A stretch of DNA of 64,000 bases, from positions 752 through 64,751 of the forward strand of contig JAGCUY010000007.1 of the NCBI GenBank assembly GCA_017962605.1, given 5' to 3'. Both the position numbers and the translations under genes were made by a program. Shown one piece after another: positions 2 through 46,976 of the stretch. The notes beneath the pieces are model-generated. The model was not told where the DNA came from. It searched no databases and saw only the letters and a program-made list of their open reading frames with translations. The stretch is from Kiritimatiellia bacterium. GTDB taxonomy: Bacteria > Verrucomicrobiota > Kiritimatiellia > RFP12 > JAAYLN01. Each line of letters begins with the position of its first letter. Position 1 is the first letter of the stretch.

Positions 2-1579
2 GAGGGCGAGGCGATACGGAAGACCATCGAGCGCATCTTCTCGTCAGGCTACCCCGAGGAGAAACTGGAGGTGGTCTGCGTCAACGACGGTTCTAAAGAC
101 GACTCCCTTGTCCACATGCTAGCCGCGCAGACGCGCCACCCGCATCTGGTGGTCGTCAACTTTGAGAAGAACCGCGGGCTATGCCACGGCTGGGGCGTGG
201 GGACCTTCCTCGCGCGCGGCGAGTTCATGGTATGCGTCGATTCCGACACCTTCGTCTTCCCCGGCTCGCTGCACAAGCTCATGCAGGGCTTCGTGGACCC
301 GTCCGTCGGCGGCATTTCAGGGCACTGCGACATCGAGAACGCCGACGTCAACACTCTGACGCGCCTCCAGGATGTCCGCTACTATTTCTCCTACAAGATC
401 ATGAAGGCGGCGGAAAGCGTCTTCGGCGTGGTGAGCTGCCTTCCCGGATGCTTCTCTGCATACAGGCGCACTTGCGTGTTGGCCGTAATGGACAAGTGGA
501 TCAACGCCACGGTCTTTGGCGAGCACGGCAACTTCGCCGACGACCGCTCCCTCACAAACCAGATCCTCCGCGACTATCGGATCATCTACGACGACGAGGC
601 GCTGGCGACGACGATTTGCCCGGAAAACTGGCGGCAGTACATCCGCCAGCAGGCACGCTGGGAGCGCTCCTACCTGCGCGAAATCTGGAAGACCGGCAAG
701 TTCATCTGGCGCAAGCACCCCGTTCCGGCCCTCTCGTGGTATGCCATGATGTGGATGCCTATCATAGAGCCGTTCGTGATGCTCGAGGCCCTCGTCATCC
801 TTCCCGTCCAGGCATTCTTGAAGGCCCCGGATCAATACTCGTCCAACCTCGCCGCATGGACGGCGGGCAAGATGAAGGCCATGACGGCAGGCTTGGACGT
901 GTCGGCGGGCTTCATGGGAAGCGTCGCCTCGAAACTGGGATACTCCCTGATCAAGGCGATTGTCGCACCGGAGTCGCTTTTGGCGCTTGCCCTCGTATTC
1001 GCCACCCTCCACTTTTTCCGCCGCGAAACGGAAAACCCCTCGCGTTCGCGTCTGCCCGGCGTCATTCTCTCCGGGGTGTCCCTGGCCTTCTTCGCCGTCC
1101 AGGCGCTGCCGCTTCTCCAAGACATACCCCTTCTTGCCGCCACGGTAAGCGCCGACTATCTCAAGGGCGTCGTCGGCTCTTCCGCGAGCCTGGCGGTGGC
1201 CGGCATGGTGATTCTCGGCGCGGCCTTCTTCCTTGAATGCACGCATGGCGTGAGGCGCTGGGGAGGGTGGGGCTTCGTTCTGCTGTTCCTGCTCTACCTG
1301 CTGTGGAAGACGGCGGCCGTCATGCCGCCGAACATGGAGCCGGGCAACATCTCCATGCCGATCTTCTACCTCTCCGAGGCGCTTCTCGTCCCGCGCACCT
1401 TCCTTATCGGCGTAATGGCCATCACCGCAGTGTGGTCGCTTCACTTCCTGGCCACGACGGGGCGCCGCTGGTGGAAGGCGGGCTTCGCCTTCACGATGTC
1501 ATACATCCTCTTCTTCAGCTGGCAAATCTACTGGGCGATGTACACCATCCGCGGCAAGGCATGGGGAACACGAGGGTAG
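2..1579 (+). CDS. Family-2 processive glycosyltransferase (PgaC/hyaluronan-synthase/cellulose-synthase-like exopolysaccharide synthase), 5'-partial
   Basis: The frame is open from the window edge and continuous with the 71..1579 ORF. Motifs seen: 'CVNDGSKDDS', DxD-like 'VDSDT', and the QxxRW signature 'QQARWERS' of processive GT2 synthases. Multiple C-terminal hydrophobic segments are present. Confidence 0.8.
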   Translation, partial: EGEAIRKTIERIFSSGYPEEKLEVVCVNDGSKDDSLVHMLAAQTRHPHLVVVNFEKNRGLCHGWGVGTFLARGEFMVCVDSDTFVFPGSLHKLMQGFVDPSVGGISGHCDIENADVNTLTRLQDVRYYFSYKIMKAAESVFGVVSCLPGCFSAYRRTCVLAVMDKWINATVFGEHGNFADDRSLTNQILRDYRIIYDDEALATTICPENWRQYIRQQARWERSYLREIWKTGKFIWRKHPVPALSWYAMMWMPIIEPFVMLEALVILPVQAFLKAPDQYSSNLAAWTAGKMKAMTAGLDVSAGFMGSVASKLGYSLIKAIVAPESLLALALVFATLHFFRRETENPSRSRLPGVILSGVSLAFFAVQALPLLQDIPLLAATVSADYLKGVVGSSASLAVAGMVILGAAFFLECTHGVRRWGGWGFVLLFLLYLLWKTAAVMPPNMEPGNISMPIFYLSEALLVPRTFLIGVMAITAVWSLHFLATTGRRWWKAGFAFTMSYILFFSWQIYWAMYTIRGKAWGTRG

Positions 1580-1600
1580 GACGAGTTTAGCAAATCAGCC

Positions 1601-4600
1601 ATGGACAACAAGAACGACAATCCCGACCGGCAGGGGGCGCCGCAGGAAAACGACGCCTTCAACAAGAACTCCACCTGGGCGCGCCCAATGGCGATGGCCC
1701 GCGACACCAACGTCGCCGCATGGTTCGCGCTTGCTGGTGTGATACTTCTCGTCGTCGCCCTGTGGGCCCCCATCTCCCGCGCCTACTGGAACGTCCGCAA
1801 CGCCAGCGCGAACAAGGAGAAGGACGTTCCGCGCACCGAAAAATGCTTCCTGGCGATCGCCTACGAGGGCGTGTCGCATCTGCCGGACCCATCTGGCAGG
1901 TTCATCTCCGCCGATGCCTTCCGGACGCACATCCAGGCGCTACGCGACGCCGGCTACCACCCAATCGGCCTTGAGGACGTCCGCGCCTTCTTCTACGAAA
2001 ACAAGCTCCTCCCGCCGAAGGCCATCCTCCTCACCTTCGACAATGCCCGCAAGAGCACCTACTTCGAAAGCCGCGAAATCATCGACGAGCTGGGCTGGCA
2101 CGCCGTCATGGGCGTCGTTACCAAGAAGGTCGGCACCAAGGACACCGACGTCATCCTCACCCCCTACCTCAAGGGCATGGTGCTTGACAGTCGCTGGGAT
2201 CTGGCGTGCGAATCCAACCAGGGGCTGGACTTCGTAACAGTCAGCCCGCAGGGGCGCAAGGCGCCGTATCTGTCCGCCCCGCTCTGGCTTGCCGGCGAGA
2301 AGCGATACGAGCGCACCGACGAGTTCAAGGCCCGTATCGAGGAGGACCACCAGTCCGCACTTGAAATCTTCGACTCCAAGCTTGGAACCAAGCCAATCGC
2401 CTTCTTCTTCCCCCTCGGGAACTACGGGCAGTTCGAGCAGTCGAACCGCCTCCTGCGCGACGCCAACCTCAACGCCGTGGCCAGCCACTACCCGCTCGGC
2501 TTCGCCCTCAACAACCAGGCCCTCAACGAGGCCTCGACAGACCGCCGCCGCATCAACCGGGCGCTCATCCCGGCGAACATGACCGCCAAGACACTCCTCG
2601 CCACGCTCGATAGCGCATGGCCCTTCGACTCCAACGGCGAGACCGGCTCCAAGCCGATCGACGTGATACGCTGGGTCGCCGACTGGGGCATCATCGAGAA
2701 GGAGTCGGAGTCCTTCACCCTCCGCGCCATGACGGCGGAGGACCAGCGCTTCTCCGACGCAGGGGCGACCATCGGCGGCCGCGCCTGGCTGTCCGGCAGC
2801 AGCCAGTTCTCCGACGGGACCTTTGAAACCCTCTTCGAGCTTGTGCGCGGGGAATTCCACGTCTATCTGCGCTATCGCTCCGAAGACGAATGGGTCAAGG
2901 TCGCATTGACGGAGGGTGGCCGCGCCACTGTCGGCCAATGCCGGTTCGGCGGAGAGCCCGAAATCGTCGCATCCGATGCCATCCGGTCCGACATCGACTT
3001 CCGCACCGTGCACAACCTCTTCATCACCATGCGCGAAAACCTCGTTTACGTCCGCCTCGACGGCGCGCTCCTCTTCAAAGGGCCGGTGCTGCTCCCAACC
3101 GCCAACGAAGGGCCGGCCGCGCCCGGCCTGATAGGCATCAGCGTGCAGGGACCGGATCCCGGCCTCGCGCAGAGCCGCGTCCGCGAATGTCATGTCAGGC
3201 CGCGCGTCAACGGCGTCATCACCTGGCCGGCATCCCTCAACAGGGAACCATCCTACCTGGTGTCGCAGCTCAACGAGTCCGTCTTCCGCTACACGGTCAT
3301 TTCGCCGCCGTGGCTGGACGTCAACCCCTCAGCGCCGCTCGCGTTCCCGTCGATTGACGCCGCCGCGATGCGCGTCGTCGCCACGGCGAACCGCGCGCGG
3401 GTGTTCCCGTTGATCACGCTCCACGCCCAGGCCCCGCTGCCGGGCATTGAAAGGTCCAGGCTGGCGAACCAGCTTGTCGATGAGGGCGCCGACGGCGTGT
3501 TCATCGACGCCAGCGACTTCCCGGTTGACCGCATCTCGCAGTTCAAGGCATGGCTCGACGAGTTGGACAATCTCCTCTCCGTCCGCAAGCTCGGCCTCGC
3601 CGTGAAATTCCCCTCGTCGGTTTCCCACCTCGCCTCGCTGTCGTCGTCCCTTGGACTGGACTCCAACCACCTTCTCGTGGTCGATGACGCCACCGTCCCT
3701 TCTGGAATCGACGCCAACAACACCCTAACGCGCATCGTCATCCCGCCGCCGGCGGACGAGGACGACATCGCCATCGTCTTCCAGCTCTCCGACTACGAGA
3801 ACGTGGCCGAGGACGAGCTTCCCGAAATCGACATGCTTCGCAGCAAGGGCTTCAAGGCCTATGTAGCAGGCGACTACCATGGTGCGACGAACTTCTTCAC
3901 GCGCTGGCGCTCCCTCGAACCCTCCAACTCCGAGGCGTGGGCCATGCTCGGTAACGCCCTCGCCCGCATACCCGACCCGAAAGGCGCCATCGCCGCCTAC
4001 AATGTCGCCCTGCGCCTCAATCCCGGCCAGGTTGACCTCATGGTCGAGTGCGCCCGCCTTCTGGAGTTCAACGACCAGCCCGAAAAGGCCGCCGAGCTGC
4101 TGGACACCTACGCCCGCGCCTTCCCTGAAGACGCCAAGATCGCGATTGCCCAGGCGAACTGGCTTGAGCGCCACGGCAAGCGCAGCGCCGGGCGCGAGAT
4201 CCTCACCAGCCTCATCGCCCGCCACGACAACGACATCCTGAGCCGCCTCGCCCTGCACAACCTGCTCGAAGCCCCCGCCGACAGATACATGAACATGCAC
4301 GCGCTCCTGAAAATCGGCTCCAGCGGCGGCCCATCGCGCCTGCTTGGCTTTGGCCACGACATCGCCGAGTCGGAAATCCTCACCATGCCGGAGTCGAGCG
4401 TATTCTTCGACTTCATCCGCGACACCGCCTCCTCTGGCGACACCGAGGCCCTGCGCACCCTCTATTCCGAGTTCCTGCCCCCGCTCACGCCGATAACGGA
4501 ACGCTTCGATACAGCCGATCTCTCCGACCACTGGACGGCGCGGGGCACGCCGCGCGCCGCCACCGCCGGCACATACGACATCCAGGCCGCTGCCGACATG

Positions 4601-5764
4601 GCCGAGGCATCCCTGCGCCTCAATCAGTCGGAACTCTTCCGCGACGGCTACATGGAGGTGCATCTCGGCGAGTCCGTAGGCGCCTTCTGGATCTACGCCC
4701 GGCGCTCCGGCCGCGCCATGATCCGCTTCGGCTTCAACGACGACGGCTACATCCGCATCCAGTCGTGGAAGAACGGCGAGATACGCACCGGCGACAGCGC
4801 CTCGTGGATCCGCCCGTCGGGCGACATCGTCCTGCGACTGGAAATCCGCGGCGACGGCGCCATGGGATACGTGGACGGGCATCCGATGTTCCACGCCCCG
4901 CTCATGATCCCGCACGACATCGCCTACGGCTGGTGGAGCGTCGCGCCCTATTCCTCGGACCTCGGCAGCGCCCGCGCCCGCATCAGCCTGATTTCGGCCG
5001 GCCCGCAAAACCCCGCCCTCGTCCTCATGCGCGAATACAAGCCGGAAAAAATCGTCGATGCCCTCGACTCCCTCCGCGCGAAGACGCGCTACATCTCTGC
5101 GCTGGCGCCGGTGATGTTCGAGCAGGCCCCGGATGGGACAGTCCTCTCCACGCCGCTTGCAGACTTCATGCCCTTCCGCATGTTCTGCTCCTACCACCGC
5201 ATACGCCTGATGCCGGCCGTGGCGCTTGACTACTATTCCGACGTCAACTCCGAAACGCTCGTCAAGATCATCCAGGAGCACAACCTGTCCGGCCTCGTCC
5301 TTCTTGTGAGGACCATGCCTGATGAGAAGTGGTACAAGAAGACGACGAGCCTCCTCGAGAACACGTCGGCGAACCTCGTCATCGTGCAGCGCGAGTTCCC
5401 GGTATTCTCTGAAGAACCGCCCAAGCCGGGCGAGGAAGTCGCGACCATCCGCGAAATCCAGCGCGGCTCCACCCTCTTCCAGCCCAACGAGCTCTCGTGG
5501 GGCCTGGCCATCCAGAGTTTCGACGAGTGGTATCCCGCAACGGCGATTCCGTCGGCGTCGCCGCAGGTCGTCCTGCTAGGCGGCCCCAAGGCCCGCGCCG
5601 TTGAGGAGGAACCCGTTTCCGCGCCGGAGGAAAGCCCGGCGAAGCCGGAGGAAGAACCCGCCCCCGCGCCGGAGGAAAGTCCGACGGAGCCGGAAAAGCA
5701 AGAAGACGCCAATCCTCCGGCACCCCGGGATGGTTCCGAGGAAACTGACGAAGACAACGCCTAG
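1601..5764 (+). CDS. Large membrane-anchored multidomain exopolysaccharide-modifying protein (CE4 deacetylase-like + TIM-barrel hydrolase-like + TPR repeats + acidic Pro/Glu-rich tail); PgaB/PgaA-like
   Basis: ATG start; N-terminal cytoplasmic stretch followed by one TM ('VAAWFALAGVILLVVALWAPI'). NodB-like motif 'ILLTFDNARKSTYF'. TPR-like helices ('SNSEAWAMLGNALARIPDPKGAIAAYNVALRLNPGQVDL...'). C-terminal repeats 'PEESPAKPEEEPAPAPEESPTEPE'. It lies directly downstream of the GT2 synthase. Confidence 0.6.
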   Translation: MDNKNDNPDRQGAPQENDAFNKNSTWARPMAMARDTNVAAWFALAGVILLVVALWAPISRAYWNVRNASANKEKDVPRTEKCFLAIAYEGVSHLPDPSGRFISADAFRTHIQALRDAGYHPIGLEDVRAFFYENKLLPPKAILLTFDNARKSTYFESREIIDELGWHAVMGVVTKKVGTKDTDVILTPYLKGMVLDSRWDLACESNQGLDFVTVSPQGRKAPYLSAPLWLAGEKRYERTDEFKARIEEDHQSALEIFDSKLGTKPIAFFFPLGNYGQFEQSNRLLRDANLNAVASHYPLGFALNNQALNEASTDRRRINRALIPANMTAKTLLATLDSAWPFDSNGETGSKPIDVIRWVADWGIIEKESESFTLRAMTAEDQRFSDAGATIGGRAWLSGSSQFSDGTFETLFELVRGEFHVYLRYRSEDEWVKVALTEGGRATVGQCRFGGEPEIVASDAIRSDIDFRTVHNLFITMRENLVYVRLDGALLFKGPVLLPTANEGPAAPGLIGISVQGPDPGLAQSRVRECHVRPRVNGVITWPASLNREPSYLVSQLNESVFRYTVISPPWLDVNPSAPLAFPSIDAAAMRVVATANRARVFPLITLHAQAPLPGIERSRLANQLVDEGADGVFIDASDFPVDRISQFKAWLDELDNLLSVRKLGLAVKFPSSVSHLASLSSSLGLDSNHLLVVDDATVPSGIDANNTLTRIVIPPPADEDDIAIVFQLSDYENVAEDELPEIDMLRSKGFKAYVAGDYHGATNFFTRWRSLEPSNSEAWAMLGNALARIPDPKGAIAAYNVALRLNPGQVDLMVECARLLEFNDQPEKAAELLDTYARAFPEDAKIAIAQANWLERHGKRSAGREILTSLIARHDNDILSRLALHNLLEAPADRYMNMHALLKIGSSGGPSRLLGFGHDIAESEILTMPESSVFFDFIRDTASSGDTEALRTLYSEFLPPLTPITERFDTADLSDHWTARGTPRAATAGTYDIQAAADMAEASLRLNQSELFRDGYMEVHLGESVGAFWIYARRSGRAMIRFGFNDDGYIRIQSWKNGEIRTGDSASWIRPSGDIVLRLEIRGDGAMGYVDGHPMFHAPLMIPHDIAYGWWSVAPYSSDLGSARARISLISAGPQNPALVLMREYKPEKIVDALDSLRAKTRYISALAPVMFEQAPDGTVLSTPLADFMPFRMFCSYHRIRLMPAVALDYYSDVNSETLVKIIQEHNLSGLVLLVRTMPDEKWYKKTTSLLENTSANLVIVQREFPVFSEEPPKPGEEVATIREIQRGSTLFQPNELSWGLAIQSFDEWYPATAIPSASPQVVLLGGPKARAVEEEPVSAPEESPAKPEEEPAPAPEESPTEPEKQEDANPPAPRDGSEETDEDNA

Positions 5765-6963
5765 TTCTGCCCGGCGCGCTCGCGGCGCCATTCGCCGGGA
5801 GAAACGCCAAGGCGCTTCTTGATGAGGTGCGAAAGATAAGGGCCGGAGGAGAAGCCGCATTCTTCGGCGATGGCGCGGATTGAGAGCGGCGTCGTGGCCA
5901 GCAGGGAGCGGACGCGCTCCATCCGCGTATCCTCTATTTGCTGGCGTATAGTCTTGCCCGTGGAGCCGAAGAGGCGTTCTGCCTGACGGCGCCCCGTTCC
6001 CATTGCGGCGGCGACGTCGCGCACCCCCAGCAGCGGGTCGGAATGGTGGTCGGCGATGAAGTCCAGCCCCGCCGCGATGCGCGGGTCGGTTTCCGCCGCG
6101 CCGCCACGCGTGCTGCCACGCCGCGAGATGCCGACGACGCCGAAGCGGACGATTGTCGGCCGTGCGGGCCGCGTGGACTTCCGTCTCGCCATCAGCGCCG
6201 CAAGCCGCTCCACGGCCATTCGCCCCGCGCCCTCGAAGTCCAGGCGGATGCTGGAAAGGGCTGGCGTGGTGGAGAGGCAGAGGGTTCCGTCGTCGTCGGT
6301 CCCCAGGATCGCGGCGTCGCGGGGGACGTCCAGCCCCGCGCTCCGGCAGGCACCGAGCGTGAACTTGGCGAGGAGGTCGTTCCCGGCGAAGATGGCCATC
6401 GGGCGCGGCAGCGACGAAAGCCATCCCCCAAGCGCGTCGCGCTCCTTCGCCCAGCCCCATTCGGTTTGCGGCTCGTAGAGGAAGGCCTCGCGGCCGGCCG
6501 CGAGGATTCTGGCGATAAATGGCTTTGCGCGGTAGTCGGTCCATGTGCGCGGCCTAAGCGCTGGGACGAAGACATGGCATTGCCGCCCGAGGGCCAGCAG
6601 TTCGTCGGCCGCGGCCACCGCCACCGCGTCGTGGTCGCATAGGACGATTCCGCGCGGCGAGTCCGCCGCCTTGCCAGATGGCGCGAAGTCGGTGTCCATC
6701 TGCACCAGCGGGGTGCCGGGGCGCATCATGGGGAGCACGCCCGACACCTTCGGCCCTCCGCGGACGAGCACGCCGTCGGCGGCGGCTATGAGGGGCGCGA
6801 CTGGCGAAAGGTCGAGGCCGGTCTGCGCCGGGTCGATTGTCTCAAGCGCCCAGCCCGCGCGCGTTGCGGCGCGTTCGATTCCGCGGAGTTCGGCGCGGCC
6901 GACCTCGGCGTTCGTCGAAACCACTGCCACGACAAGCCTTGTTTTTCCCTCGCCGCCTTCCAT
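5761..6963 (-). CDS. AraC-family transcriptional regulator with periplasmic-binding-protein-like sugar-sensing domain (XylR-like)
   Basis: The C-terminal AraC HTH is 'IRAIAEECGFSSGPYLSHLIKKRLGVSPGEWRR'. The N-terminal ~280 aa form a LacI/PBP-like fold. ATG start confirmed on the minus strand. It is divergent from the GH gene cluster. Confidence 0.75.
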   Translation of the reverse strand: MEGGEGKTRLVVAVVSTNAEVGRAELRGIERAATRAGWALETIDPAQTGLDLSPVAPLIAAADGVLVRGGPKVSGVLPMMRPGTPLVQMDTDFAPSGKAADSPRGIVLCDHDAVAVAAADELLALGRQCHVFVPALRPRTWTDYRAKPFIARILAAGREAFLYEPQTEWGWAKERDALGGWLSSLPRPMAIFAGNDLLAKFTLGACRSAGLDVPRDAAILGTDDDGTLCLSTTPALSSIRLDFEGAGRMAVERLAALMARRKSTRPARPTIVRFGVVGISRRGSTRGGAAETDPRIAAGLDFIADHHSDPLLGVRDVAAAMGTGRRQAERLFGSTGKTIRQQIEDTRMERVRSLLATTPLSIRAIAEECGFSSGPYLSHLIKKRLGVSPGEWRRERAGQN

Positions 6964-9040: not shown

Positions 9041-9150
9041 ACTACGCACTAACCACTACGCACTTTGAACTTTGAACTCTGCACTACGCCCTCTGCACTA
9101 CGCACTACGCACTTTTCAACCTTTCAACCTTTCAACTTCACTAGAACCCC
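9041..9150. repeat. Intergenic degenerate tandem repeats (ACTACGCAC)n followed by (TTTCAACC/TTTTCAAC)n
   Basis: Direct reading of 'actacgcactaaccactacgcactttgaactttgaactctgcactacgccctctgcactacgcactacgcacttttcaacctttcaacctttcaacttcac'. It belongs to the same family as repeats at 23663, 24901 and 62585. Confidence 0.8.
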
Positions 9151-9157
9151 AACAAGA

Positions 9158-11455
9158 ATGGCACACAAAATGAAACACCGTTTCAATGTCCATTCCAATA
9201 ACGCTAACTCCGCGCGCAAATCCGCCGGAAGCGCAGTCGCGCTGCTCGCTGTAGCGCTCGCAACGGCACCAGGCGCAGCCTATGCCGATGATCCGCTCGT
9301 CATCGAGCCGGGATCGCCAAAGGTGATGACGGCGGCGGAGCCCGCCGCCTACTACACAATTGCCAGAGGACCGGACTGGGTACCGGTAGATTACAGAAGG
9401 GATGTCATCCCAGGTTCGGCGCTCGATTTTTCGCGTTTTTCGAATGACACACCCGCCGGAAGTCACGGCTGGCTTCGCCGCGTCGGCGGGCATTTCGAAT
9501 TCGAGGGTCGCCCAGGCGAAAATGTGCGTTTCTACGGGGCGAACATCTGCTTCGATGCCTGTTTCCCAACACAGGAGGAAGCGGAACTTCTCGTCAGGAG
9601 ACTCAAAGCCACAGGATACAATTCGATCCGCCTCCACCATCACGACGAGGCGTGGGCGAAAGCCCACGCCAGTCGAAAGGTTGAAAAGTCGAATAGTGCG
9701 TTTTACGGCGACGACATCGACCGCTTTGACTATCTTGTAGCCACCGCAATCAAGGCCGGACTCTACGTCACGACCGATCTTTACGTATCACGTAGTGTGA
9801 AGTGGCGCGACATCGAAATCGACCGCGACGGTGAAGTCCCCAAGGCCTGGTTCAAGGCCCTGATCACTTTCCACGAACCGGCATTCCGGAATTGGCTGGC
9901 ATTCGCCACGTCTTTCATGGAACACGTTAACCCCTACACCGGCAGAAGATATGCCGACGAACCGGGAATGCCGCTTGTCTGCCTGGTCAACGAAGGCAAC
10001 TACCGGGTGAATTGGGCGAAAACCGCGCAGTTGCCGTGCGTCCGGGAGGCGTGGAGCCGGTGGGCCGCCGCAAAACTCGCCGAGGATCCGTACTTCGCGG
10101 GCGGCGACGACATCTCCGATCCGGCTCGCCTCAAATGGAACAAGCTGGGCCGCTTCACGCACACGGCGCTTGCGACATTCATGGCCGAAATGGAGGAAAA
10201 AAGCTACGCGCGGGAACTCGCCGCGATGCGCGAAATCGGCGCGAAGGCGCTCTTCACCTCGCTCAACCACCCGCCTTTCCATGCGCCCGACCATGCCGTC
10301 CGGCAGCGCCTCTACGACTACTTCGACGATCACTGCTACGTTGACCAGCCGTTTTGGCCGCAACGCAAGTGGCGGCTTCCCGCCGGGCTGAACAACCTCA
10401 ACCCGCTCCTGGACCCGGAGTTCCGCCTCCCGAAAGATGCCTTCAACCGGCTCTGGGGGCTTCCGACAACGATGAGCGAATGGAATTTCGCGGGGCCGAA
10501 CGCATGGCGCGGCATGGGGGGACTGCTCACGGGCGCGATGGCCGCCGGCCAGGAGTGGAGCGGCGTCTGGCGCTTCGCGTACGCGCACCACCGCGATGTC
10601 CTGAGGGACGGCGCCGGGGGATTTTTCGATATCGCCAAGGATCCGCTGAACATGCTCGCGGAGCGGACGGCCGTGCCGCTCTTCCTGCGGGGCGACTTCG
10701 CCCCTCTCCCTCGCAAGATCGCACTGATGATCGATGAAAAGGCGCAGCGTCCGAAGGGGTCGCAAATGCCTGCGTTCTTCCCCGAATGGCGGGCGGAGGC
10801 GGTTTGGCGCTCGCAGGTCGGCGTGGCGTTTCCCGGAACCGAAGTGTCCGGCGCCGAGGCGTTCGACCTCACGTCGGTGATGGACGACGCCGTGCCGCCG
10901 CTTGATCTCGGGAACCCTCCGCAAATGCGCATCGACCGGGAGGCGGGGACGTTTGCCGTTGAAACGCCGCTCACCTGCGGGGGCTTCGCGACGAATGGCA
11001 CGATTTCGGCGGGCGCGTTGACGGCCACTGTCGTTCGCGGCGGCCCGACGACCATCGCGGCCACGTCCCTCGACGGCAAACCGCTTGGGGAGTCCGGCCA
11101 TGTTCTCGTCACGCACCTCACCGACGCGCAGGCCGAAGGCCGCCAGTTCGGCGATGAAACACGGACGCGGATGCTCGCCTGGGGCCACCAGCCGACATTG
11201 ATCCGCGACGGAGAGGCGGAGATCGCACTGCAAGCACCATTGGTGAACAATCCATTCCAGGTGTGGGCCCTCGGCACCGACGGGAAGCGGGAGGGGATTG
11301 TCGCGTCTCGCTTTGAAGACGGCCGCCTCCTTTTCACTGCCCGCGTCCGGGGACCCAACGGCGCATGCATGGCATACGAAATCGACGGTAACGTCAACGA
11401 CACCGGTTTTCCGATGGCGGCGGGTGCCGCCACGGCTTCAACAACAACAAACTGA
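9158..11455 (+). CDS. Secreted TIM-barrel glycoside hydrolase (clan GH-A, GH5-like)
   Basis: ATG at 9158 gives the signal peptide 'SAVALLAVALATAPGAAYA'. GH-A-like motifs 'RFYGANICFDACFP...GYNSIRLHHHDEAW' and 'LVCLVNEGNY' (NE acid/base) are present. Confidence 0.45.
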   Translation: MAHKMKHRFNVHSNNANSARKSAGSAVALLAVALATAPGAAYADDPLVIEPGSPKVMTAAEPAAYYTIARGPDWVPVDYRRDVIPGSALDFSRFSNDTPAGSHGWLRRVGGHFEFEGRPGENVRFYGANICFDACFPTQEEAELLVRRLKATGYNSIRLHHHDEAWAKAHASRKVEKSNSAFYGDDIDRFDYLVATAIKAGLYVTTDLYVSRSVKWRDIEIDRDGEVPKAWFKALITFHEPAFRNWLAFATSFMEHVNPYTGRRYADEPGMPLVCLVNEGNYRVNWAKTAQLPCVREAWSRWAAAKLAEDPYFAGGDDISDPARLKWNKLGRFTHTALATFMAEMEEKSYARELAAMREIGAKALFTSLNHPPFHAPDHAVRQRLYDYFDDHCYVDQPFWPQRKWRLPAGLNNLNPLLDPEFRLPKDAFNRLWGLPTTMSEWNFAGPNAWRGMGGLLTGAMAAGQEWSGVWRFAYAHHRDVLRDGAGGFFDIAKDPLNMLAERTAVPLFLRGDFAPLPRKIALMIDEKAQRPKGSQMPAFFPEWRAEAVWRSQVGVAFPGTEVSGAEAFDLTSVMDDAVPPLDLGNPPQMRIDREAGTFAVETPLTCGGFATNGTISAGALTATVVRGGPTTIAATSLDGKPLGESGHVLVTHLTDAQAEGRQFGDETRTRMLAWGHQPTLIRDGEAEIALQAPLVNNPFQVWALGTDGKREGIVASRFEDGRLLFTARVRGPNGACMAYEIDGNVNDTGFPMAAGAATASTTTN

Positions 11456-11459
11456 ACAC

Positions 11460-20267: not shown

Positions 20268-21020
20268 ATGATTGAAGATTGTTTCAACTTCTCGGCTAAC
20301 GGCAACCCTTGGCGCGGGAGGCGCGTTGCCTTTTTCGGCGATTCGATTACGGATCCCGCCCATATCGGCTGCTCTGAAAACTACTGGGGCGTGCTTGAAC
20401 GCGCAATCGGCATTGTCCCCCTCGTCTATGGCGTAAATGGCCACCAGTGGTGCGGCATCCCCGGCCAAATAGAGGCCTTCTCCGCCGAAAATGCCGAAGG
20501 CCCTGACGCCATCTTCGTTTTTGCCGGAACCAACGACTTCAATTCCAGCATCCCGCTTGGCGAATGGTTCTCGGTCAGCGATGTCGTCGTCAGGCGCAGC
20601 AAGGGCGACACTCCCGTGCGCCGCCGGGATTTCATTTTCGACGACTCCACCCTGCGCGGCCGCATCAACATCGCGATGCGCATGCTTCAGGACCGCTGGC
20701 CCGGCGCCCCGAAATTCCTGCTCACGCCAATTCACCGCGGCTATGCGGAGTTCTCTTCGGACAACGTCCAGCCCGACGAAACCCATTCCAATGAACTGGG
20801 CCTTTTCATCGGCGACTACGTCGATGTCGTTAAGGAGGCCGGCGGCATCTGGTCGGCGACGGTCATAGACCTCTTCTCGGAATCGGGGCTGTTTCCGCTT
20901 CTGCCATCCCACGCCAAGTTCTTCAACCAGACGGGCACCGACCGCCTCCATCCATCTGACGCGGGGCACAGGCGCATCGCCGCCGCGATTCTCCGCCGCC
21001 TGGGCTTCCCCGCTTTGTAA
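20268..21020 (+). CDS. SGNH/GDSL hydrolase family protein
   Basis: 'VAFFGDSITD' (block I), 'FAGTNDF' (block III) and 'DRLHPSDAGH' (block V) are present. Confidence 0.7.
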   Translation: MIEDCFNFSANGNPWRGRRVAFFGDSITDPAHIGCSENYWGVLERAIGIVPLVYGVNGHQWCGIPGQIEAFSAENAEGPDAIFVFAGTNDFNSSIPLGEWFSVSDVVVRRSKGDTPVRRRDFIFDDSTLRGRINIAMRMLQDRWPGAPKFLLTPIHRGYAEFSSDNVQPDETHSNELGLFIGDYVDVVKEAGGIWSATVIDLFSESGLFPLLPSHAKFFNQTGTDRLHPSDAGHRRIAAAILRRLGFPAL

Positions 21021-21095
21021 AGCGCCAGCGCGGCGTCTGCGTTGCAATTTGCGCGGCAATCCTGTAAACTGGATTGCTGTAAAATTTCCACATCC

Positions 21096-22574
21096 ATGCA
21101 GTTTCCGACCGCCATATTCGCCTGCTTTTTCGCCCTTGTCCTTGGGCTGCACTGGACGCTTCCCGAGCGGGGCGTCACGCGCAAGTGGGCCTTGCTCGCG
21201 GCAAGCGTAGCCTTCTACGCCTGGTGGAGTTGGAAGTTCGCGCTCCTCACGCTGGCCTCCGCGGCGCTCAACCATGGCGCGGCCCTTCTGATAGCCTCCG
21301 TGGAGGACGCGAGGAAGCGCCGCGCGCGCCTCGTCGTGGCCGTCGCCGCCAACCTGCTCCTTCTCGCATTCTTCAAGTATTCCGGATTCCTGTTGACCCA
21401 GGTGTTCCACCCGCTTGCCGTCATCTGCTTCCGGCAGTTCGGCGCAATCGAGAACCTGCTTGACTTCGAGGACAGGATACTCCCCTTTGTCGAAAGCATC
21501 ATCCTGCCAATCGGCATATCGTTCTACACCTTCCAGGCAATCGCGTATGTCGCGGACGTTGCCTCTGGCAAGGCGCGTCCGGCAGCGTCGCTGCTCGACT
21601 TCGCGAACTACCTCGCCTTCTTCCCGAAACTCTGCGCCGGCCCAATCGTGCGCCCCTCCGCGCTCCTGCCGCAAATGGAGTCGCTTCCCGCGCGCTCAAC
21701 CGAAGTCGACACCGGCCGCGCCGCAACGCTTGTCCTTGGTGGGCTCTTCAAGAAGGTCGTCGTGGCGAACTGGATCGCACAGCACCTGGCCGACCCCGTC
21801 TTCACCGACCCCGAGTCATTCGGCGCCGCCGACGCCCTCCTCGGCATCTACGGATACACGATCCAGATCTACTGCGACTTCTCCGCCTATTCCGACATCG
21901 CCACGGGCTGCGCGCTCCTCTTGGGCTTCAAGTTCCCCGACAACTTCCGCGCCCCATACGTGGCGAGCTCGCTCCAGGACTTCTGGCGTCGCTGGCACAT
22001 CACTCTCTCGTCCTGGCTACGCGACTACCTCTACATCCCCATGGGCGGGTCGCGCTGCGCCAAGTGGAAGGTCCACCGGAACCTCATAGTCACCATGCTC
22101 CTCGGCGGGCTGTGGCACGGGGCCGGATGGTCATACATACTCTGGGGCGCCATCCATGGCGTCGGCCAGGTTCTCGAACGTCCCTTCAACAAGAAACGCG
22201 CCGCAGACGCGCCGCCAGCTCCTCGCGCGGTCACGCTGCTTCGCGGCATCGTAACATTCCACGTCGTGGCCTTCGCGTGGATATTTTTCCGCGCGGGCGC
22301 AGTGGACGCCGAGGGGCTGACCACGGTCTCGGGCATCCTCTCCGACCTCGGGCACTGGAGCGAACCGGCCACGCTCCTCACGCCAATGGCCATCGCCATG
22401 CTCCTCATCGGCTTCGCCCTGCAGGCGCTCGACGGCGACACGCCGCGCCGCCTCTGGGCCGCCTTCGGGCGCCTGCACCCCGTGGCGCAGGGGCTCGTGG
22501 CCGCCATACTCCTTACCGTCGTCCTCGGACTCGGCCCCGCCGGGGTCGCGCCATTCATCTACTTCCAATTCTAG
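21096..22574 (+). CDS. MBOAT-family membrane O-acyltransferase (AlgI/DltB/PatA-like)
   Basis: 'WRRWHITLSSWLRDYLYIPMGGSR' matches the AlgI/DltB signature with its conserved His. It is multi-TM. ATG at 21096 was confirmed. Confidence 0.8.
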   Translation: MQFPTAIFACFFALVLGLHWTLPERGVTRKWALLAASVAFYAWWSWKFALLTLASAALNHGAALLIASVEDARKRRARLVVAVAANLLLLAFFKYSGFLLTQVFHPLAVICFRQFGAIENLLDFEDRILPFVESIILPIGISFYTFQAIAYVADVASGKARPAASLLDFANYLAFFPKLCAGPIVRPSALLPQMESLPARSTEVDTGRAATLVLGGLFKKVVVANWIAQHLADPVFTDPESFGAADALLGIYGYTIQIYCDFSAYSDIATGCALLLGFKFPDNFRAPYVASSLQDFWRRWHITLSSWLRDYLYIPMGGSRCAKWKVHRNLIVTMLLGGLWHGAGWSYILWGAIHGVGQVLERPFNKKRAADAPPAPRAVTLLRGIVTFHVVAFAWIFFRAGAVDAEGLTTVSGILSDLGHWSEPATLLTPMAIAMLLIGFALQALDGDTPRRLWAAFGRLHPVAQGLVAAILLTVVLGLGPAGVAPFIYFQF

Positions 22575-22580
22575 AAACCC

Positions 22581-22823
22581 ATGCAGCGGACATCTCAAAA
22601 AAGAATTGCCGGAACGCTCCTGGCCGTGGCCGCATTCTACGCGGCGGCGCTCCTCCTGCGTGCGCCGGCGCTTCTTCGAGATGCCGAAAACCTGCCGCAT
22701 GAATCCCCGCGCCGCGCACTGTGCCTCGCCACCATGAAGCCGATCGCGGCATTTTCCCACACCATCCGCCTCGACGCCATTTGCGTCGCGGTGGAAAAAT
22801 TCGAAAGGAAAAACCTGGAATGA
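22581..22823 (+). CDS. Small membrane protein between MBOAT and SGNH partner (hypothetical)
   Basis: 80 aa with one hydrophobic helix. Its position is analogous to small accessory proteins in polysaccharide acetylation operons. It is not an acyl-carrier protein. Confidence 0.3.
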   Translation: MQRTSQKRIAGTLLAVAAFYAAALLLRAPALLRDAENLPHESPRRALCLATMKPIAAFSHTIRLDAICVAVEKFERKNLE

Positions 22824-23572
22824 ACAAGGCAAAATCCAACACCGCCCTCGCCGCCGCGCTGTTCGCGGCATGCTCACTGGCTGGCGCAACGGCCCTTGCC
22901 GCTCCTGCGGAGCAGGCCGAAGAGGTCAAAATCCCGAAGCCCGACACGCCTGTCCTCATGATTGGCGACTCCATGATGCGCATCCTCGGCCGTCAGATGG
23001 AAAAGGCATTCAAGAAGGCCGACGTCCAGCCCGCCGTCGCCTTTTCGTCGCTCGGCTCTGGTCTCGGGCGGCCCGAGGCCTTTGACTGGACGGCGAAGAT
23101 AAAAGAGCTCCTCGAAACGGAAAAGCCGAAGACCGTGTTCGTCTGCCTCGGCACCAACGACCGCCAGGCGCTCGAACTAGAAAACGCCGTCATCAGGTAC
23201 GAGACCGCCGACGTCTGGCGCGAAACCTACGGGAAGCTTATCGGTGGCTTGATGGATCAGCTGCTCGAAGGAGGCGTGACGCGCGTGATATGGATGCTCC
23301 TCCCCGACATGAAGGACTCCGTGGCGCAGGAACACGCGCAGCTCGTGAACGAAATCGTCGGCGAGCAGGCGCAGGTGGAGAGCCGCAAGGACCGCGTAAC
23401 GCTCCTCGACCTCGCGCCGGTCCTCTCCCGCCACCCCGGCAAGTATTCGCAGTATATGATGTCGCCGACGGGCACCTCCCTCTCCGTGCGCGACCCCGAC
23501 GGCGTACACCTCTCCGTTGACGGCGGCAAGCTCATCGCGGAAACCGTCCTGAAGAAATACTGGCGGAAATAA
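22820..23572 (+). CDS. Periplasmic SGNH-fold O-acetyltransferase/esterase partner of MBOAT (AlgJ/AlgX/PatB-like)
   Basis: ATG at 22820 with RBS 'ggaaaggaaaaa'. Signal peptide 'ALAAALFAACSLAGATALA'. 'VLMIGDSMM' (GDS block) and 'VCLGTNDR' are present. Confidence 0.55.
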   Translation: MNKAKSNTALAAALFAACSLAGATALAAPAEQAEEVKIPKPDTPVLMIGDSMMRILGRQMEKAFKKADVQPAVAFSSLGSGLGRPEAFDWTAKIKELLETEKPKTVFVCLGTNDRQALELENAVIRYETADVWRETYGKLIGGLMDQLLEGGVTRVIWMLLPDMKDSVAQEHAQLVNEIVGEQAQVESRKDRVTLLDLAPVLSRHPGKYSQYMMSPTGTSLSVRDPDGVHLSVDGGKLIAETVLKKYWRK

Positions 23573-26110: not shown

Positions 26111-26112
26111 AC

Positions 26113-27042: not shown

Positions 27043-27072
27043 TCTCAAACCACTCTCATCCCAGTTTTTAAA

Positions 27073-28941: not shown

Positions 28942-28944
28942 CAA

Positions 28945-30555: not shown

Positions 30556-30567
30556 AGGATCACGACA

Positions 30568-32718: not shown

Positions 32719-32754
32719 CATCGCAAGCACATTACGTTCAGGTTGAATAATAAG

Positions 32755-35340: not shown

Positions 35341-35425
35341 TGGCATCTGGATGCAGCCAAAAGCACACCATCTAGGAGGAATAACCATGGCCACAACCAA
35401 GACATCCACCACGGAGGACTAATTC

Positions 35426-43117: not shown

Positions 43118-43316
43118 GCGCCGAAGTTTGGCGCTTACGCGCCCTTGATGTTTGAGCCATGCGGGCGAAGTTTGGAAATGGAGGATTGCGTGGCAGCGTG
43201 ATGGCAAAGGCTGGTTGCATTATTGCCGCTGTTTGCCTTTGAAGGGGCTTTTTTGATAAAATGAATATGTTGGAATTGCTTTATTTTTGAGAGTGAAAAA
43301 CAACGAGAACCAGGCA

Positions 43317-46300
43317 ATGAATAATTCATCTTTGCACCGCATCCCGCCAGCGGCCGCGCTGGCGCTGGCAGCGTTAGCCCTTTTTTGTGCCAACGCGGAG
43401 CCGCCGCGCTTCCTGGCCCCCATGCCGGGCAAGGAGGAGGAGAAGACGACTACCGACATCCTCCCCATCCCTCCCGAAGCGACCGAGGAGCAGAAGGAGG
43501 AGTATGAGAAGGTCATCGAAAAGGCCCGCACGGACGACGTGTCGGTGACAGACCAGGCCGCCCTCATGTATCGCGGCCTCGCCTGCCTAGTGGACGAGGA
43601 ATATGAGGAGTCCATCCCGTTCTTCGAGGAGGCCCTGCGTCGCGACCCCTCCCTCCAGGCCGCATGGGAGGGCCTTGGATGGGCCCATATCCGCATTGAT
43701 GACAAGAAGACCGCCAAGGCGATCTGGGATTATTTCCGCCGTTTGATGCCCGAACAGCCCCTTCCTTACGCCCTTCTCGGGCAAATGGCCGTCCTCGAAT
43801 ACGACTGGCCCCTCGCCGACAGGCACTTCAAAAAGTCCCTGGAGCTGAAGCCCGACCAGTTCGACGTGCGCTACTGGTACGCCCAGAACCTCATGCGCCT
43901 CGGCAAGGCCAGCGAGGCCGAGGACATCTTCCGCGCCCTCATAAAGCTTGAGCCGGACCGCCTCGACATCGAAATTGACCTCGCCGGCCTTCTCGTCCAG
44001 CGCCTCGAATACAACGAGGCCGTTGAAATATACCGCCGCGTTAACGACGAGATTCCCGACAACCCCCGCTTCCTGCTTGAAGAGGCCCTTCTGGAACTCA
44101 AGGTGGGCGAAGTGACCCGCGCCGACGAACTCTGCCAGCAAGTGCTGGAGCTTGAGCCGTCGAACCTTGACGCCATGCGCCTCCGCGCAGACATCGCGGA
44201 GATCGTCGGCCTGAACGACATATCCCCTCTCCGCGACCTGATCGACCAGACGGACGACCCACTCCAGAGGGCCGCGCTGCGCATCCGCCTCGCCAACCGC
44301 TGCCTCCTTGAAAACCGCAGCAAGCCGGGGCAGTATGAACAGGACATGATCCTCGGCCTGATCCACGACGCCATCAAGGACAACCCGGCCAGCGTGGAGT
44401 ACCGCATTCTCTACGCCCAGCTGCTTGTGATGGACAACCAGTACGCGAAGGCCCGCGCCGTCGCGAACGCCGTCCTCGAGCGCTTCAACCGCGCCAATTT
44501 CGACGCCAAGCAGGTCCTGCTTGAAGTCGATATGCGCGAATCCAAATACGATGACGCCCTCCAGGTTCTTTCCGACCTTTACAGCGGCCTTTCCGCCGAT
44601 GACCCGATGGCCCACTACTACCGCGCCCGCATCTACACCTTGCAGGGCCGCTACGCCGATGCCAAGCGCGAAATAGACTTCATTGAGGCCGCAGCCAGCC
44701 AGGGCGCGGTCCTCTCGCTCGTTTACACCGCCCTCACGGAGAGCGACTGGACGCCCGCCACATCGGTCCGCCGCCTCCACGAGCACATACTCGCCCTCCA
44801 GCAGGAGGGGTGGATACTCGTTCCGCCGGCGGAAATAGAGAGGCTGCTCCGCCCACCGGAAGGCGAGCGGCGCTCCGGCGGCGTGGCGAAGGAGTCAATA
44901 CCCCTGACGGCAAAGCTCGTCGATTACTTCCGCTGGTGCTTCACCGGTAAGAGGAAATACCCATCGGAGGATTCCTCCTCCGCGATCGCCAAGCCCAAGA
45001 AATACTTCACGGTGTTCTTCGACGGCGACCTTCGCTCCTCCCTCCTTCTCGGCAACGAAGTCGCCGAGGACTTCGGCGTGCCATTCGGCATTTTCGTGCC
45101 TACCGGCCCATCCAAGGAATACGTGCCGTCGCGCGCCGGTTGGGACGAACTCCGCGACTACGCCCAGTCTGGCAACTGGGTGGTTGGCAGCCAGCTTCAC
45201 TACGCCTATGAAAAGAAGCCCGTGGACAAGGACAGCCTAGACTGGCGCCCGCCGCTGCCGAACCGCATCTGGCTCCCCGAGAAGAACCGCATTGAGTCCA
45301 TGGGCGAGTGGGACAAGCGCGTCCGCACCGAGTTCCGCATGAGTCGCAACGTCCTCAGACACGAAATGGGCGCGGACGACTCGGCAGTGCCGATGGTCGC
45401 CTATCCCTTCAACGACGTCGGCCAGGCGGGAGCCTGCAACCTCTACTCCGTCCGCGACCCCATAGGCACCATCGTAGCCGAGGCGGCGCGCTCCTATCGA
45501 CTGGGCTTCGTCCAGAGCCAGAGCGGCTACACGCTCTACGGCGACAACCTCCTCCTCTGCCGCCGCTACGCTCCGAGCTGGACCGACGAGGGCGCGGACG
45601 TCGTCCGCCACGCCTACGAGTACCACCCGCTCTTCATCGCGCGCAAGCTACGTGCCGAAGTGGCGATGCTAATGAACCACCCGAACGAGGCGAACGCCAT
45701 GGCAGACGTCCTGAAGCGCGACGGCTATCCCGACGAACTTTGCCGCCAGCTGGATGCGGCCATCCACTCCCACTTCCAGAACAAGCCCACACGCGAGCGC
45801 CCGCCGCTCGTTGTCGAGGAGGACTACTACGACGACAACACCAACGTCGTCATCGCCTCCTCCGTCAACGAGGGGACCGGCAACCCGCTCATCAGATTTG
45901 ACCACCCGTTCGTTGGCGCGCTTGCAATGCACAGCAAGGCCAATGACCAGATAGAGACCTTCGAATACGGCGCCCGCGCCGGCATAGACCTCTCGCGCAA
46001 CACCACGCTGGCCTTCGAGTTCACCAACGGCCGCATGGAGCAGACGGTCCGGCCGCGCTGGGATGCCGTCATCATCACGAACGTCCCATACTCGAAGAGC
46101 AAGTACAAGTTCAAGATGGAAACCCAGACCATCAAGGGCACGCTCACGCACCGCAATGAGAGCGGCACCATCCTCTCCGCCACCCTTGGCATCGCGAAGA
46201 AGTCCCGGGTCTCCACTTCGGTCTCCCTCACGGACATCAACCTCCAGGACGATCTCAACTCGCACGTGTTCACGCTTGATGACGACGACTCAACCGTTGT

Positions 46301-46976
46301 CGGCGCGCTGGGCGCCCTCTGGAACCCCACTGACAACCTCCGCCTCCACTTCATCTACAGCCACGACTACGTGTCATCGGCGGTGAAGAACATCGACTAC
46401 CACGGCGTGAGCGCGAACATGCTGTGGAAGCCGGAGGACGGCTGGAACGTGAACAGCATGGTGCAGTACAGGACCTACAGCGACGACAACGCCTTCTACA
46501 ACGGCATGGTCGAATCCATGTGGGAGACAAGCCAGGACAGTGGCATCTGGGCCGGCCTGCAGCTCTCTACCGTCTCCACCAGCGAACCGCACGACTTCTA
46601 CTGGACACCGTATTGGGACCAGCGCGCCCTGGGCGTCCTCCGCTACACGCAGAACCGCGAGGGCTACCACCTTTCGCTCAGCCTCCTCGGCGGCCTCCAC
46701 CGGGACGAGGCGCGTTCGGACCGCCTTTACGAGACGGAGGTGACCCACGAGAAGGTCGTCGTGGTGGATGGTGTGGAAAATACCGTCAAGGAGACCGGAA
46801 CCGAATACGTGGTCATGGAGACCGGAGCCGCCGGGTGGCATAAGATCTGGGGCTTCTCCGCCAGCTACGAGAAAGACCTTTCCCCGAACTTCACGCTGAT
46901 CATGGAGGGGCAGGTCATGGCGCTGCGCGACTACATCGACCACATGGCGCTCGTCTATCTGCGCGTGAATTTCTAG
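43317..46976 (+). CDS. Single-polypeptide TPR + CE4 polysaccharide deacetylase + C-terminal outer-membrane beta-barrel (PgaA/PgaB-like fusion) exopolysaccharide export/modification protein
   Basis: ATG at 43317 gives signal peptide 'AAALALAALALFCANA'. About 450 aa of TPR helices follow. NodB-like 'KYFTVFFDGDLRSS'. The C-terminal ~400 aa have alternating beta-strand character, and the terminal 'YLRVNF' aromatic residue is typical of OM barrels. Confidence 0.55.
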   Translation: MNNSSLHRIPPAAALALAALALFCANAEPPRFLAPMPGKEEEKTTTDILPIPPEATEEQKEEYEKVIEKARTDDVSVTDQAALMYRGLACLVDEEYEESIPFFEEALRRDPSLQAAWEGLGWAHIRIDDKKTAKAIWDYFRRLMPEQPLPYALLGQMAVLEYDWPLADRHFKKSLELKPDQFDVRYWYAQNLMRLGKASEAEDIFRALIKLEPDRLDIEIDLAGLLVQRLEYNEAVEIYRRVNDEIPDNPRFLLEEALLELKVGEVTRADELCQQVLELEPSNLDAMRLRADIAEIVGLNDISPLRDLIDQTDDPLQRAALRIRLANRCLLENRSKPGQYEQDMILGLIHDAIKDNPASVEYRILYAQLLVMDNQYAKARAVANAVLERFNRANFDAKQVLLEVDMRESKYDDALQVLSDLYSGLSADDPMAHYYRARIYTLQGRYADAKREIDFIEAAASQGAVLSLVYTALTESDWTPATSVRRLHEHILALQQEGWILVPPAEIERLLRPPEGERRSGGVAKESIPLTAKLVDYFRWCFTGKRKYPSEDSSSAIAKPKKYFTVFFDGDLRSSLLLGNEVAEDFGVPFGIFVPTGPSKEYVPSRAGWDELRDYAQSGNWVVGSQLHYAYEKKPVDKDSLDWRPPLPNRIWLPEKNRIESMGEWDKRVRTEFRMSRNVLRHEMGADDSAVPMVAYPFNDVGQAGACNLYSVRDPIGTIVAEAARSYRLGFVQSQSGYTLYGDNLLLCRRYAPSWTDEGADVVRHAYEYHPLFIARKLRAEVAMLMNHPNEANAMADVLKRDGYPDELCRQLDAAIHSHFQNKPTRERPPLVVEEDYYDDNTNVVIASSVNEGTGNPLIRFDHPFVGALAMHSKANDQIETFEYGARAGIDLSRNTTLAFEFTNGRMEQTVRPRWDAVIITNVPYSKSKYKFKMETQTIKGTLTHRNESGTILSATLGIAKKSRVSTSVSLTDINLQDDLNSHVFTLDDDDSTVVGALGALWNPTDNLRLHFIYSHDYVSSAVKNIDYHGVSANMLWKPEDGWNVNSMVQYRTYSDDNAFYNGMVESMWETSQDSGIWAGLQLSTVSTSEPHDFYWTPYWDQRALGVLRYTQNREGYHLSLSLLGGLHRDEARSDRLYETEVTHEKVVVVDGVENTVKETGTEYVVMETGAAGWHKIWGFSASYEKDLSPNFTLIMEGQVMALRDYIDHMALVYLRVNF

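Follow-up and report, generated by a model that had tools for sequence, protein, structure and literature searches.

The stretch of DNA analysed here (the window) is 64,000 nucleotides long, comes from a Kiritimatiellia bacterium and begins with two adjacent plus-strand genes: a glycosyltransferase of family 2 (GT2) and a 1387-residue membrane-anchored periplasmic partner, called GIANT throughout this report. The GT2 gene occupies 2..1579 (+), where frame 2 contains no stop codon between base 2 and the one at 1577–1579, and its 525 codons correspond to residues 180–704, the C-terminal 525 amino acids, of a 704-residue protein. The whole gene is present on L001, a metagenomic contig of essentially the same strain (6 mismatches in 15,764 nucleotides) that reaches 751 nucleotides further upstream than the window. 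A sigma-70-like site, TTGATT-17-TAAAAT, lies 30 nucleotides ahead of the GT2 start. The open reading frame (ORF) of GIANT runs from an ATG at 1601 to 5764 (1601..5764, +; 1387 codons) with the GT2 gene directly upstream. Its homologues are full-length, 1300–1580 residues long and 28–99% identical, and because full-length homologues of similar length exist, GIANT is taken as a real gene and not a chance ORF in high-GC DNA. The first-pass annotation had described two adjacent genes without a porin gene beside them, and both points hold, as the first frame stays open to 1579, the second is backed by homologues, and the gene that follows encodes an AraC-type regulator with a periplasmic-binding domain, in convergent orientation (5761–6963, minus strand). 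Since that gene is convergent, the transcription unit consists of two genes in this genome. The stops of GIANT and of the regulator overlap by 4 nucleotides (5761–5764).

The GT2 sequence contains the full set of motifs of a processive synthase, as had been proposed for it. A DSD (DxD) motif is read directly at residues 259–261 (239..247, +), and an ADDR motif at residues 358–361 (536..547, +) is equivalent to GDDRxLTN of hyaluronan synthases in the alignment to the Chlorella-virus hyaluronan synthase 7sp7. The processivity motif QQARW (QxxRW) is found at residues 395–399 (647..661, +) by reading and by the same alignment, and WGTRG at residues 700–704 (1562..1576, +), the very end of the protein, aligns to AWGTRG of 7sp7. 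This synthase is the closest solved structure (6.7e-25), and DSD, ADDRSLTN, QQARWxxSxxREIW and the terminal WGTRG all align to it. The top Pfam match is Chitin_synth_2 (7e-24), followed by general GT2 families, while the NCBIfam matches include NodC (1.9e-35) and PgaC (2.5e-27). The window GT2 misses the cut-offs of these and other curated equivalogs by a wide margin (122.6 against 550 for NodC and 95.9 against 422.3 for PgaC, scored on the 525-residue window fragment), and its identity to Escherichia coli PgaC is 25% across 334 residues. Hydropathy predicts about eight transmembrane helices, of which two precede the glycosyltransferase domain and about six follow it. Most relatives have a length of about 490 residues. 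Members of the rumen clade, the window GT2 among them, carry an additional CxxC...CxxC segment at the N-terminus and about 200 residues of additional transmembrane helices. Judged by these motifs and matches, GT2 is a processive, channel-forming synthase of the hyaluronan synthase, chitin synthase and NodC group; PgaC, NodC and BcsA are not its orthologues. The earlier comparison with PgaC or BcsA is accordingly replaced by a placement nearer to hyaluronan synthase, chitin synthase and NodC.

GIANT is organised as a transmembrane helix, a domain resembling carbohydrate esterase family 4 (CE4), a beta-sandwich with an alpha/beta module, a tetratricopeptide repeat (TPR) block, a second sandwich with a second alpha/beta module, and a tail. 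The sole hydrophobic helix lies at residues 38–56 (1712..1768, +), in line with the anchored protein first described, and is preceded by a 37-residue hydrophilic segment. R28 of this segment is nearly invariant, and W41 inside the helix is invariant. The N-terminus has no lipobox and thus fails as a PgaB-like lipoprotein signal. Two AlphaFold models, built from alignments of 47–48 sequences, cover residues 70–560 (predicted local distance difference test score, pLDDT, 88) and 556–1315 (pLDDT 86). The CE4-like domain spans residues 78–345 (1832..2635, +). It is followed by beta-sandwich 1, a jelly roll resembling CBM66, GH16 and L-type lectins, at residues 350–556 (2648..3268, +; model pLDDT 88), and by alpha/beta module 1, with a fivefold beta-alpha-beta pattern in the model and in profile comparison, at residues 557–720 (3269..3760, +). 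TPR and helical repeats occupy residues 740–964 (3818..4492, +); domain search detects the TPR region named in the first-pass annotation at about 740–960, and the model agrees. Beta-sandwich 2 (residues 965–1140; 4493..5020, +) and alpha/beta module 2 (residues 1141–1310; 5021..5530, +) are homologous to their first copies. Residues 1311–1387 (5531..5761, +), outside the modelled range, form a disordered, low-complexity Pro/Glu/Ala tail that reads PEESPAKPEEEPAPAPEESPTEPE; these 77 residues are 21% P and 21% E and have a net charge of -15. The acidic tail reported earlier is therefore present in GIANT but is not a family feature, as its length (9–240 residues) and composition vary among homologues, and it is assigned no specific role.

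The CE4-like domain retains the fold of the PgaB deacetylase domain and has lost its catalytic residues. TIGR03938, the model of that domain, matches GIANT at 1.3e-24 (86.5 against a curated threshold of 321.9), PF01522 falls under its threshold (0.015; 15.7 against 23.1 bits), and a sequence search of the PDB finds BpsB and PgaB. Foldseek comparison of the modelled domain with PgaB, BpsB, PplD and IcaB gives E values of 6e-19 to 3e-12 and target TM scores of 0.77–0.86, entries 4u10, 4f9d, 3vus, 5bu6 and 6dq3 falling between 6e-19 and 2e-15, and hhalign against residues 41–310 of E. coli PgaB gives a probability of 99.6%. Residues 78–345 are thus modelled as the distorted (beta/alpha) barrel of the NodB-homology fold. 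The PgaB catalytic numbering (H55, D114, D115, H184, H189) was checked on a phmmer alignment to 3vus, whose residue 1 is 42, and places E89, D147, N148, E204 and L209 of GIANT at these five positions. The Asp-His-His metal triad (PgaB D115, H184, H189) is absent from all 29 aligned family members and from every one of more than 80 GIANT loci, and an alignment of every CE4-like domain finds the canonical set in no GIANT-type protein of the fetched loci. Across the 29 members motif 1 reads TF[D/E][N/Q/H], with one TFDD, and the position of the His-x4-His motif reads [E/Q]-S-x-x-x-G-x. The residue at the H55 position varies among E, Y, A, G, S, T, N, D and Q, and that at the H189 position among L, F, T and S. 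The fold-stabilising residues shared with PgaB (RYE, D249 and PxG) are kept. By canonical sequence criteria, this domain is a pseudo-deacetylase. Of the CE4 deacetylase announced by the first-pass annotation, the fold survives (TIGR03938; Foldseek TM scores of 0.82–0.86 to PgaB and PplD) and the canonical active site does not, its residue set being absent throughout the family.

The remainder of the periplasmic part is built on a duplication. The block at residues 350–720 is homologous to that at 965–1310 (hhalign probability 99.5%, E 4e-23, 284 columns), and the two alpha/beta modules also match one another when compared separately (probability 97.2, E 4e-11). In the models the alpha/beta modules consist of alternating strands and helices in a 5-strand/4-helix pattern. 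The structurally nearest neighbours of the sandwiches in Foldseek are CBM66, GH16, PL7 and L-type lectins, with sandwich 1 matching CBM66 4b1m at 3e-9. Sandwich 2 contains a strand, E1019-V-[T/H]-L-x-E1024 (window 4655–4672), whose two glutamates are kept in 26 and 27 of the 29 members, respectively. The sequence G-x-F-W-L-Y-A-R-R-S comes next, with G1027, W1030, Y1032, R1034, R1035 and S1036 invariant. The strand resembles the catalytic strand motif of GH16, ExDxxE, and the pair of glutamates is missing from sandwich 1. No Pfam match to GH16, PL7 or GH18 is found in GIANT. A TIM barrel had also been listed among its domains, and this identity, like that of a GH153 domain, finds no support: the barrel similarities of GIANT are all non-significant (probability 2–14%), hhalign detects no relation to the GH153 domain of PgaB, and the stretches concerned are the duplicated sandwich and alpha/beta module instead. 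Of the domain list as a whole, the anchor, the CE4 fold, the TPR block and the tail stand, and the active deacetylase and the TIM barrel are not supported. A word-indexed database search for the sandwich and alpha/beta module in other architectures returned only fragments of the same family.

The distribution of GIANT relatives was scanned with one genome per species. They occur in 212 species genomes, almost all of them Kiritimatiellia, often labelled Verrucomicrobia, Lentisphaerae or PVC (Planctomycetes-Verrucomicrobia-Chlamydiae), and the genomes were obtained from lakes, sediments, digesters and rumen. At least one isolate, B1221 (locus L080), carries the cluster. A GT2 gene lies directly upstream of GIANT on the same strand in 54 of the 56 loci with enough upstream sequence, and its stop codon overlaps the GIANT start codon in L003, L005 and L007. 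One Verrucomicrobia-labelled metagenome-assembled genome contains a tandem GIANT-GT2-GIANT-GT2 arrangement (L066, 9176–19925). The main arm of the commonest cluster consists of GT2, GIANT, a membrane-bound O-acyltransferase (MBOAT), an 85-residue protein, a DUF459/SGNH protein and a TPR-CE4 protein of about 1200 residues. Its divergent arm, upstream in most relatives, consists of GHL10, an AAA22 ATPase of the PEP-CTERM-associated type (3.6e-33) and a KaiC-like ATPase. GHL10 is the sole component with detectable similarity to the GH153 domain of PgaB (hhalign probability 82%, E 1e-5, 233 columns), and because of this resemblance a hydrolase role probably resides in GHL10 and not in GIANT. In the window strain the upstream arm seems to be missing or moved. 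L001 ends 215 nucleotides before the GT2 start, and its positions 1–215 hold the last 39 codons of another gene, where the close relatives L003 and L008 have a GHL10 gene. This fragment has no family match, and its identification as a transposase has been dropped.

The main arm is dispersed in the window. The MBOAT gene (DltB/AlgI-like; 21042..22574, +; DltB model 1.9e-53, under cut-off) directly follows GIANT in most relatives and is 15 kb away here. It is followed by a PatB-like DUF459/SGNH gene (22721..23572, +; PatB model 7e-20, under cut-off). The genes at 20268–23572 and 43287–46976 thus lie 15 kb and 37 kb downstream of GIANT, separated by carbohydrate-degradation and other genes, and a split of this kind is also seen in rumen relatives. 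The gene at 43287..46976 (+) encodes a candidate outer-membrane export protein of 1229 residues with a signal peptide, TPRs at about residues 70–470, a BpsB-like CE4-like domain (1.7e-4) and a C-terminal part of about 440 residues. The protein ends in LVYLRVNF, and nearly all of its homologues end with an aromatic residue after alternating hydrophobic residues, as is usual for an outer-membrane beta-signal. It is taken as the exporter on account of the signal peptide, its position in the cluster and this C-terminal aromatic signal. The C-terminal 380–440 residues show no similarity to PDB entries or to the PgaA barrel, and both the beta-barrel and the porin function are putative. The porin sought elsewhere in the window thus has a candidate gene. 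The CE4-like domain of the 1229-residue protein is itself degenerate (FFDG, SQLHYAY). Many exporter relatives outside the rumen clade keep TFDD and the first His, several keep the second His too, and the two most distant, from L092 and L094, have the complete H-D-D-H-H set. Rumen-clade exporters read FDG/T/A/S and Q/S/E at the CE4 positions. Since the CE4-like domains of both GIANT and the exporter are degenerate, neither has a canonical active site in this organism.

An exhaustive search with residues 968–1310 of GIANT yields 130 representatives, among them proteins of 1200–1600 residues and single-module relatives of about 640 residues. The latter have a transmembrane helix and a degenerate CE4-like domain (TF[D/E]E, with the His pair missing), together with a single sandwich and a single alpha/beta module. 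They directly follow a chitin-synthase-like GT2 in three of four loci (L089, L092 and L093); insertion sequence elements lie between the two in L094. The regions concerned are 4808–5890 in L089, 5257–7488 in L093 and 1560–8082 in L092. Their neighbours in these three loci include an intact GH18 protein (DGIDIDFE; Pfam 1.3e-23) and a CE4 protein with a strong Pfam match and TFDD. In L092 a protein with TPRs, an intact CE4 domain (HDDHH) and a barrel is found with a UDP-sugar dehydrogenase and GlmS beside the relative. As judged from these gene sets, the constant element of the wider family is a synthase with a pseudo-CE4 partner, and the variable neighbours are all predicted to have hexosamine or uronic-acid sugars as their substrates or to provide them. 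The presence of GH18, CE4 and UDP-sugar dehydrogenase with GlmS beside the sister systems points to a hexosamine polymer.

The components can be compared with those of known systems. GT2 shares DxD, DDRxLTN, QxxRW, WGTR(G) and multiple transmembrane helices with class I hyaluronan synthases, chitin synthases and NodC; unlike in hyaluronan synthase systems, no UDP-glucose dehydrogenase gene is seen adjoining the GT2 gene in the window. The CE4-like domain of GIANT has the same fold and subfamily as the N-terminal domain of PgaB and BpsB, including the long RYE-containing insertion, and GIANT is likewise periplasmic and encoded beside a GT2 synthase. It differs from them in lacking the metal triad, the catalytic His and the C-terminal GH153 domain, in having about 1000 further residues after the CE4-like domain, and in being anchored by an inner-membrane helix, whereas PgaB is an outer-membrane lipoprotein. 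In BcsB, on which BcsA depends, jelly rolls are described as alternating with flavodoxin-like modules (PMC8892547). GIANT is also a membrane-anchored periplasmic partner, is encoded directly after its synthase and has two jelly-roll plus alpha/beta repeats. However, hhalign of GIANT against E. coli BcsB gives a probability below 1%, BcsB is absent among the structural matches listed, and the BcsB anchor is C-terminal, whereas that of GIANT is N-terminal and the protein has a CE4-like domain and a TPR block in addition. The layout of GIANT is called BcsB-like for its duplicated jelly roll with an alpha/beta module, a 5-strand/4-helix pattern being seen where BcsB has flavodoxin-like modules.

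The TPR domain of PgaA is reported to bind the polymer and to modulate PgaB (PMC9384988). GIANT has a periplasmic TPR block of the polymer- and enzyme-binding kind found in PgaA, BcsC and PelB, but in place of a barrel its C-terminal part is a sandwich, an alpha/beta module and a tail. The 1229-residue protein resembles PgaA, BcsC and PelB in combining TPRs with a putative barrel and differs in having a CE4-like domain between them and no detected similarity to the PgaA barrel. The canonical cluster also has an MBOAT and SGNH/DUF459 pair, like the alginate (AlgI/J/X), acetylated cellulose (WssH/I) and PatA/PatB systems, although in the window this pair is 15 kb from the synthase and its matches are weak and under cut-offs. 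The proposed fusion of periplasmic functions is borne out in that PgaB-like, BcsB-like and TPR (PgaA/BcsC-like) elements share one inner-membrane anchor.

On balance, with confidence a little above even, the two genes are read as the inner-membrane core of a synthase-dependent exopolysaccharide secretion system characteristic of Kiritimatiellia, in which GIANT serves as a non-catalytic guide or scaffold. The GT2 motifs, the adjacency of GT2 and GIANT and the downstream cluster genes all favour the synthase-dependent exopolysaccharide locus first suggested. In this mechanism GT2 would polymerise a beta-linked glycan containing N-acetylglucosamine from UDP-sugars, giving a product like chitin, poly-N-acetylglucosamine (PNAG) or hyaluronan, and would pass the chain through the inner membrane in the manner of hyaluronan and chitin synthases. 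GIANT, made from the same transcript, would be held beside the synthase by its N-terminal helix and would take up the emerging chain in the periplasm. The PgaB-like domain most likely binds the polymer instead of deacetylating it, because its fold is kept and its metal site is lost. The two jelly-roll plus alpha/beta modules would guide the chain like domains D1–D4 of BcsB, and the TPRs may dock the MBOAT/SGNH O-acylation pair and the exporter with its TPRs, CE4-like domain and putative beta-barrel. Several observations weigh against this reading. A D or E is present at the catalytic-base position (PgaB D114) in 27 of 29 members and an E or Q is kept at the first-His position (PgaB H184), residues that leave room for non-canonical CE4 activity. 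The conserved E-x-[T/H]-x-x-E strand of sandwich 2 could be catalytic. In addition, the cluster is split over 47 kb in this genome and the window lacks its upstream GHL10 and ATPase genes, so that partial decay of the system is conceivable here.

Two rival explanations retain a catalytic GIANT. It could be an active PgaB-like enzyme that partly de-N-acetylates, and perhaps cleaves, a PNAG-like polymer via non-canonical residues. The conserved PgaB-type fold with its PgaB-specific RYE...D region would fit this proposal, as would the D/E at the D114 position, the E/Q at the H184 position and the existence of metal-independent CE4-fold enzymes. It is nevertheless judged unlikely: D115, H184, H189 and H55 are replaced in every member, and because the replacements vary (E/Y/A/G/S at 55; L/F/T/S at 189), a conserved alternative active site is disfavoured. 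The Pfam CE4 match is also under threshold, and in sister lineages another protein of the system contains an intact HDDHH CE4 domain. Alternatively, GIANT could be a polymer hydrolase, lyase or transglycosylase with its centre in the GH16/PL7-like sandwich 2 or in alpha/beta modules packed as a barrel. GH16 and PL7 enzymes are indeed among the best structural neighbours of the sandwich, but the non-catalytic CBM66 and lectins score equally well, and Pfam gives no GH16, PL7 or GH18 match. E1019 and E1024, which 26 and 27 of the 29 members retain in a strand similar to the GH16 motif, have no counterpart pair in sandwich 1. The sequence DGVFIDAS is weakly motif-like to strand 4 of GH18 and GHL10 barrels, yet has Ser at the GH18-like position of the catalytic Glu, and the barrel similarities are non-significant (probability 2–14%). 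A dedicated GHL10 or GH18 gene is present in related clusters, and a polymer-processing GIANT is considered quite improbable.

The remaining alternative concerns the product, which would not be a secreted matrix polymer but part of the cell envelope or, as with NodC and NodB, short chito-oligosaccharide signals. NodC is the best NCBIfam match of GT2, although at a score of 123 against a cut-off of 550, and a GT2 with a CE4-like neighbour recalls nodBC, although the CE4-like domain here is periplasmic and of the PgaB type. Occurrence in 212 species genomes of one class would suit a core envelope function. The approximately eight transmembrane helices and the WGTRG end are those of channel-forming synthases, and genes for periplasmic acylation and for a TPR-barrel export protein belong to the cluster, so that this alternative is regarded as the least probable of those considered.

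Several other genes in the window are recorded here as separate observations. A same-strand run at 25960–39872 encodes an unusual combination of a C39-like peptidase, two dynamin-family GTPases, two Hsp70/MreB-like ATPases (one with Sel1 repeats and one with LGFP repeats), a PrsW-like protease, a zinc-ribbon protein and a metallopeptidase-like protein. An 1884-residue protein at 53971–59625 has a GH39 domain in its middle (residues about 990–1170) and no Pfam match elsewhere. Two large overlapping ORF calls at 9065–14153, of 796 and 951 residues (765 and 893 on L001), match no Pfam family except for a faint autotransporter PATR repeat. A HipA-like kinase gene at 50186–51097 (HipA_C 1.2e-41) has no obvious hipB partner noted.

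The four well-studied synthase-dependent exopolysaccharide systems are those for cellulose, PNAG, alginate and Pel, all of which are known from Proteobacteria or Firmicutes. Conservation of the GT2-GIANT system spans an entire class of the PVC superphylum, and its synthase belongs to a different subfamily. A literature search returned no paper linking Kiritimatiellia to the GT2-GIANT cluster, and an operon survey has no PVC entries (PMC7112194). Its parts are familiar; what is new is how they are combined, that the CE4 active site has been lost throughout the family, and how broadly the system is conserved. Familiar periplasmic parts are rearranged: the PgaB-type fold is kept without its chemistry, one inner-membrane protein unites a TPR block with a BcsB-like repeat, and the candidate active deacetylase, where present, is part of the outer-membrane exporter. 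GIANT would thereby offer a natural example of a carbohydrate esterase turned into a binding module. Cultured Kiritimatiellia reportedly release hexosamine-containing, glycosaminoglycan-like exopolymers, for which the Pontiella study proposes a different, Wzy-type cluster (PMC7356697), and the GT2-GIANT system is an alternative candidate source. More tentatively, it may represent an undescribed family of secretion systems, in which a hyaluronan/chitin-synthase-like GT2, obligatorily paired with an anchored pseudo-deacetylase 'reader' of BcsB-like repeat layout, is combined with periplasmic O-acylation and a TPR-CE4-barrel exporter, and which would make the hexosamine-rich, glycosaminoglycan-like polymers described from Kiritimatiellia in culture (PMC7356697) and from anaerobic sludge granules. 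On this reading the two CE4 domains of the rumen clade would both be non-catalytic, and its polymer would leave the cell fully N-acetylated. For the Kiritimatiellia, the cluster would provide a candidate gene set for their unexplained glycosaminoglycan-like polymers.

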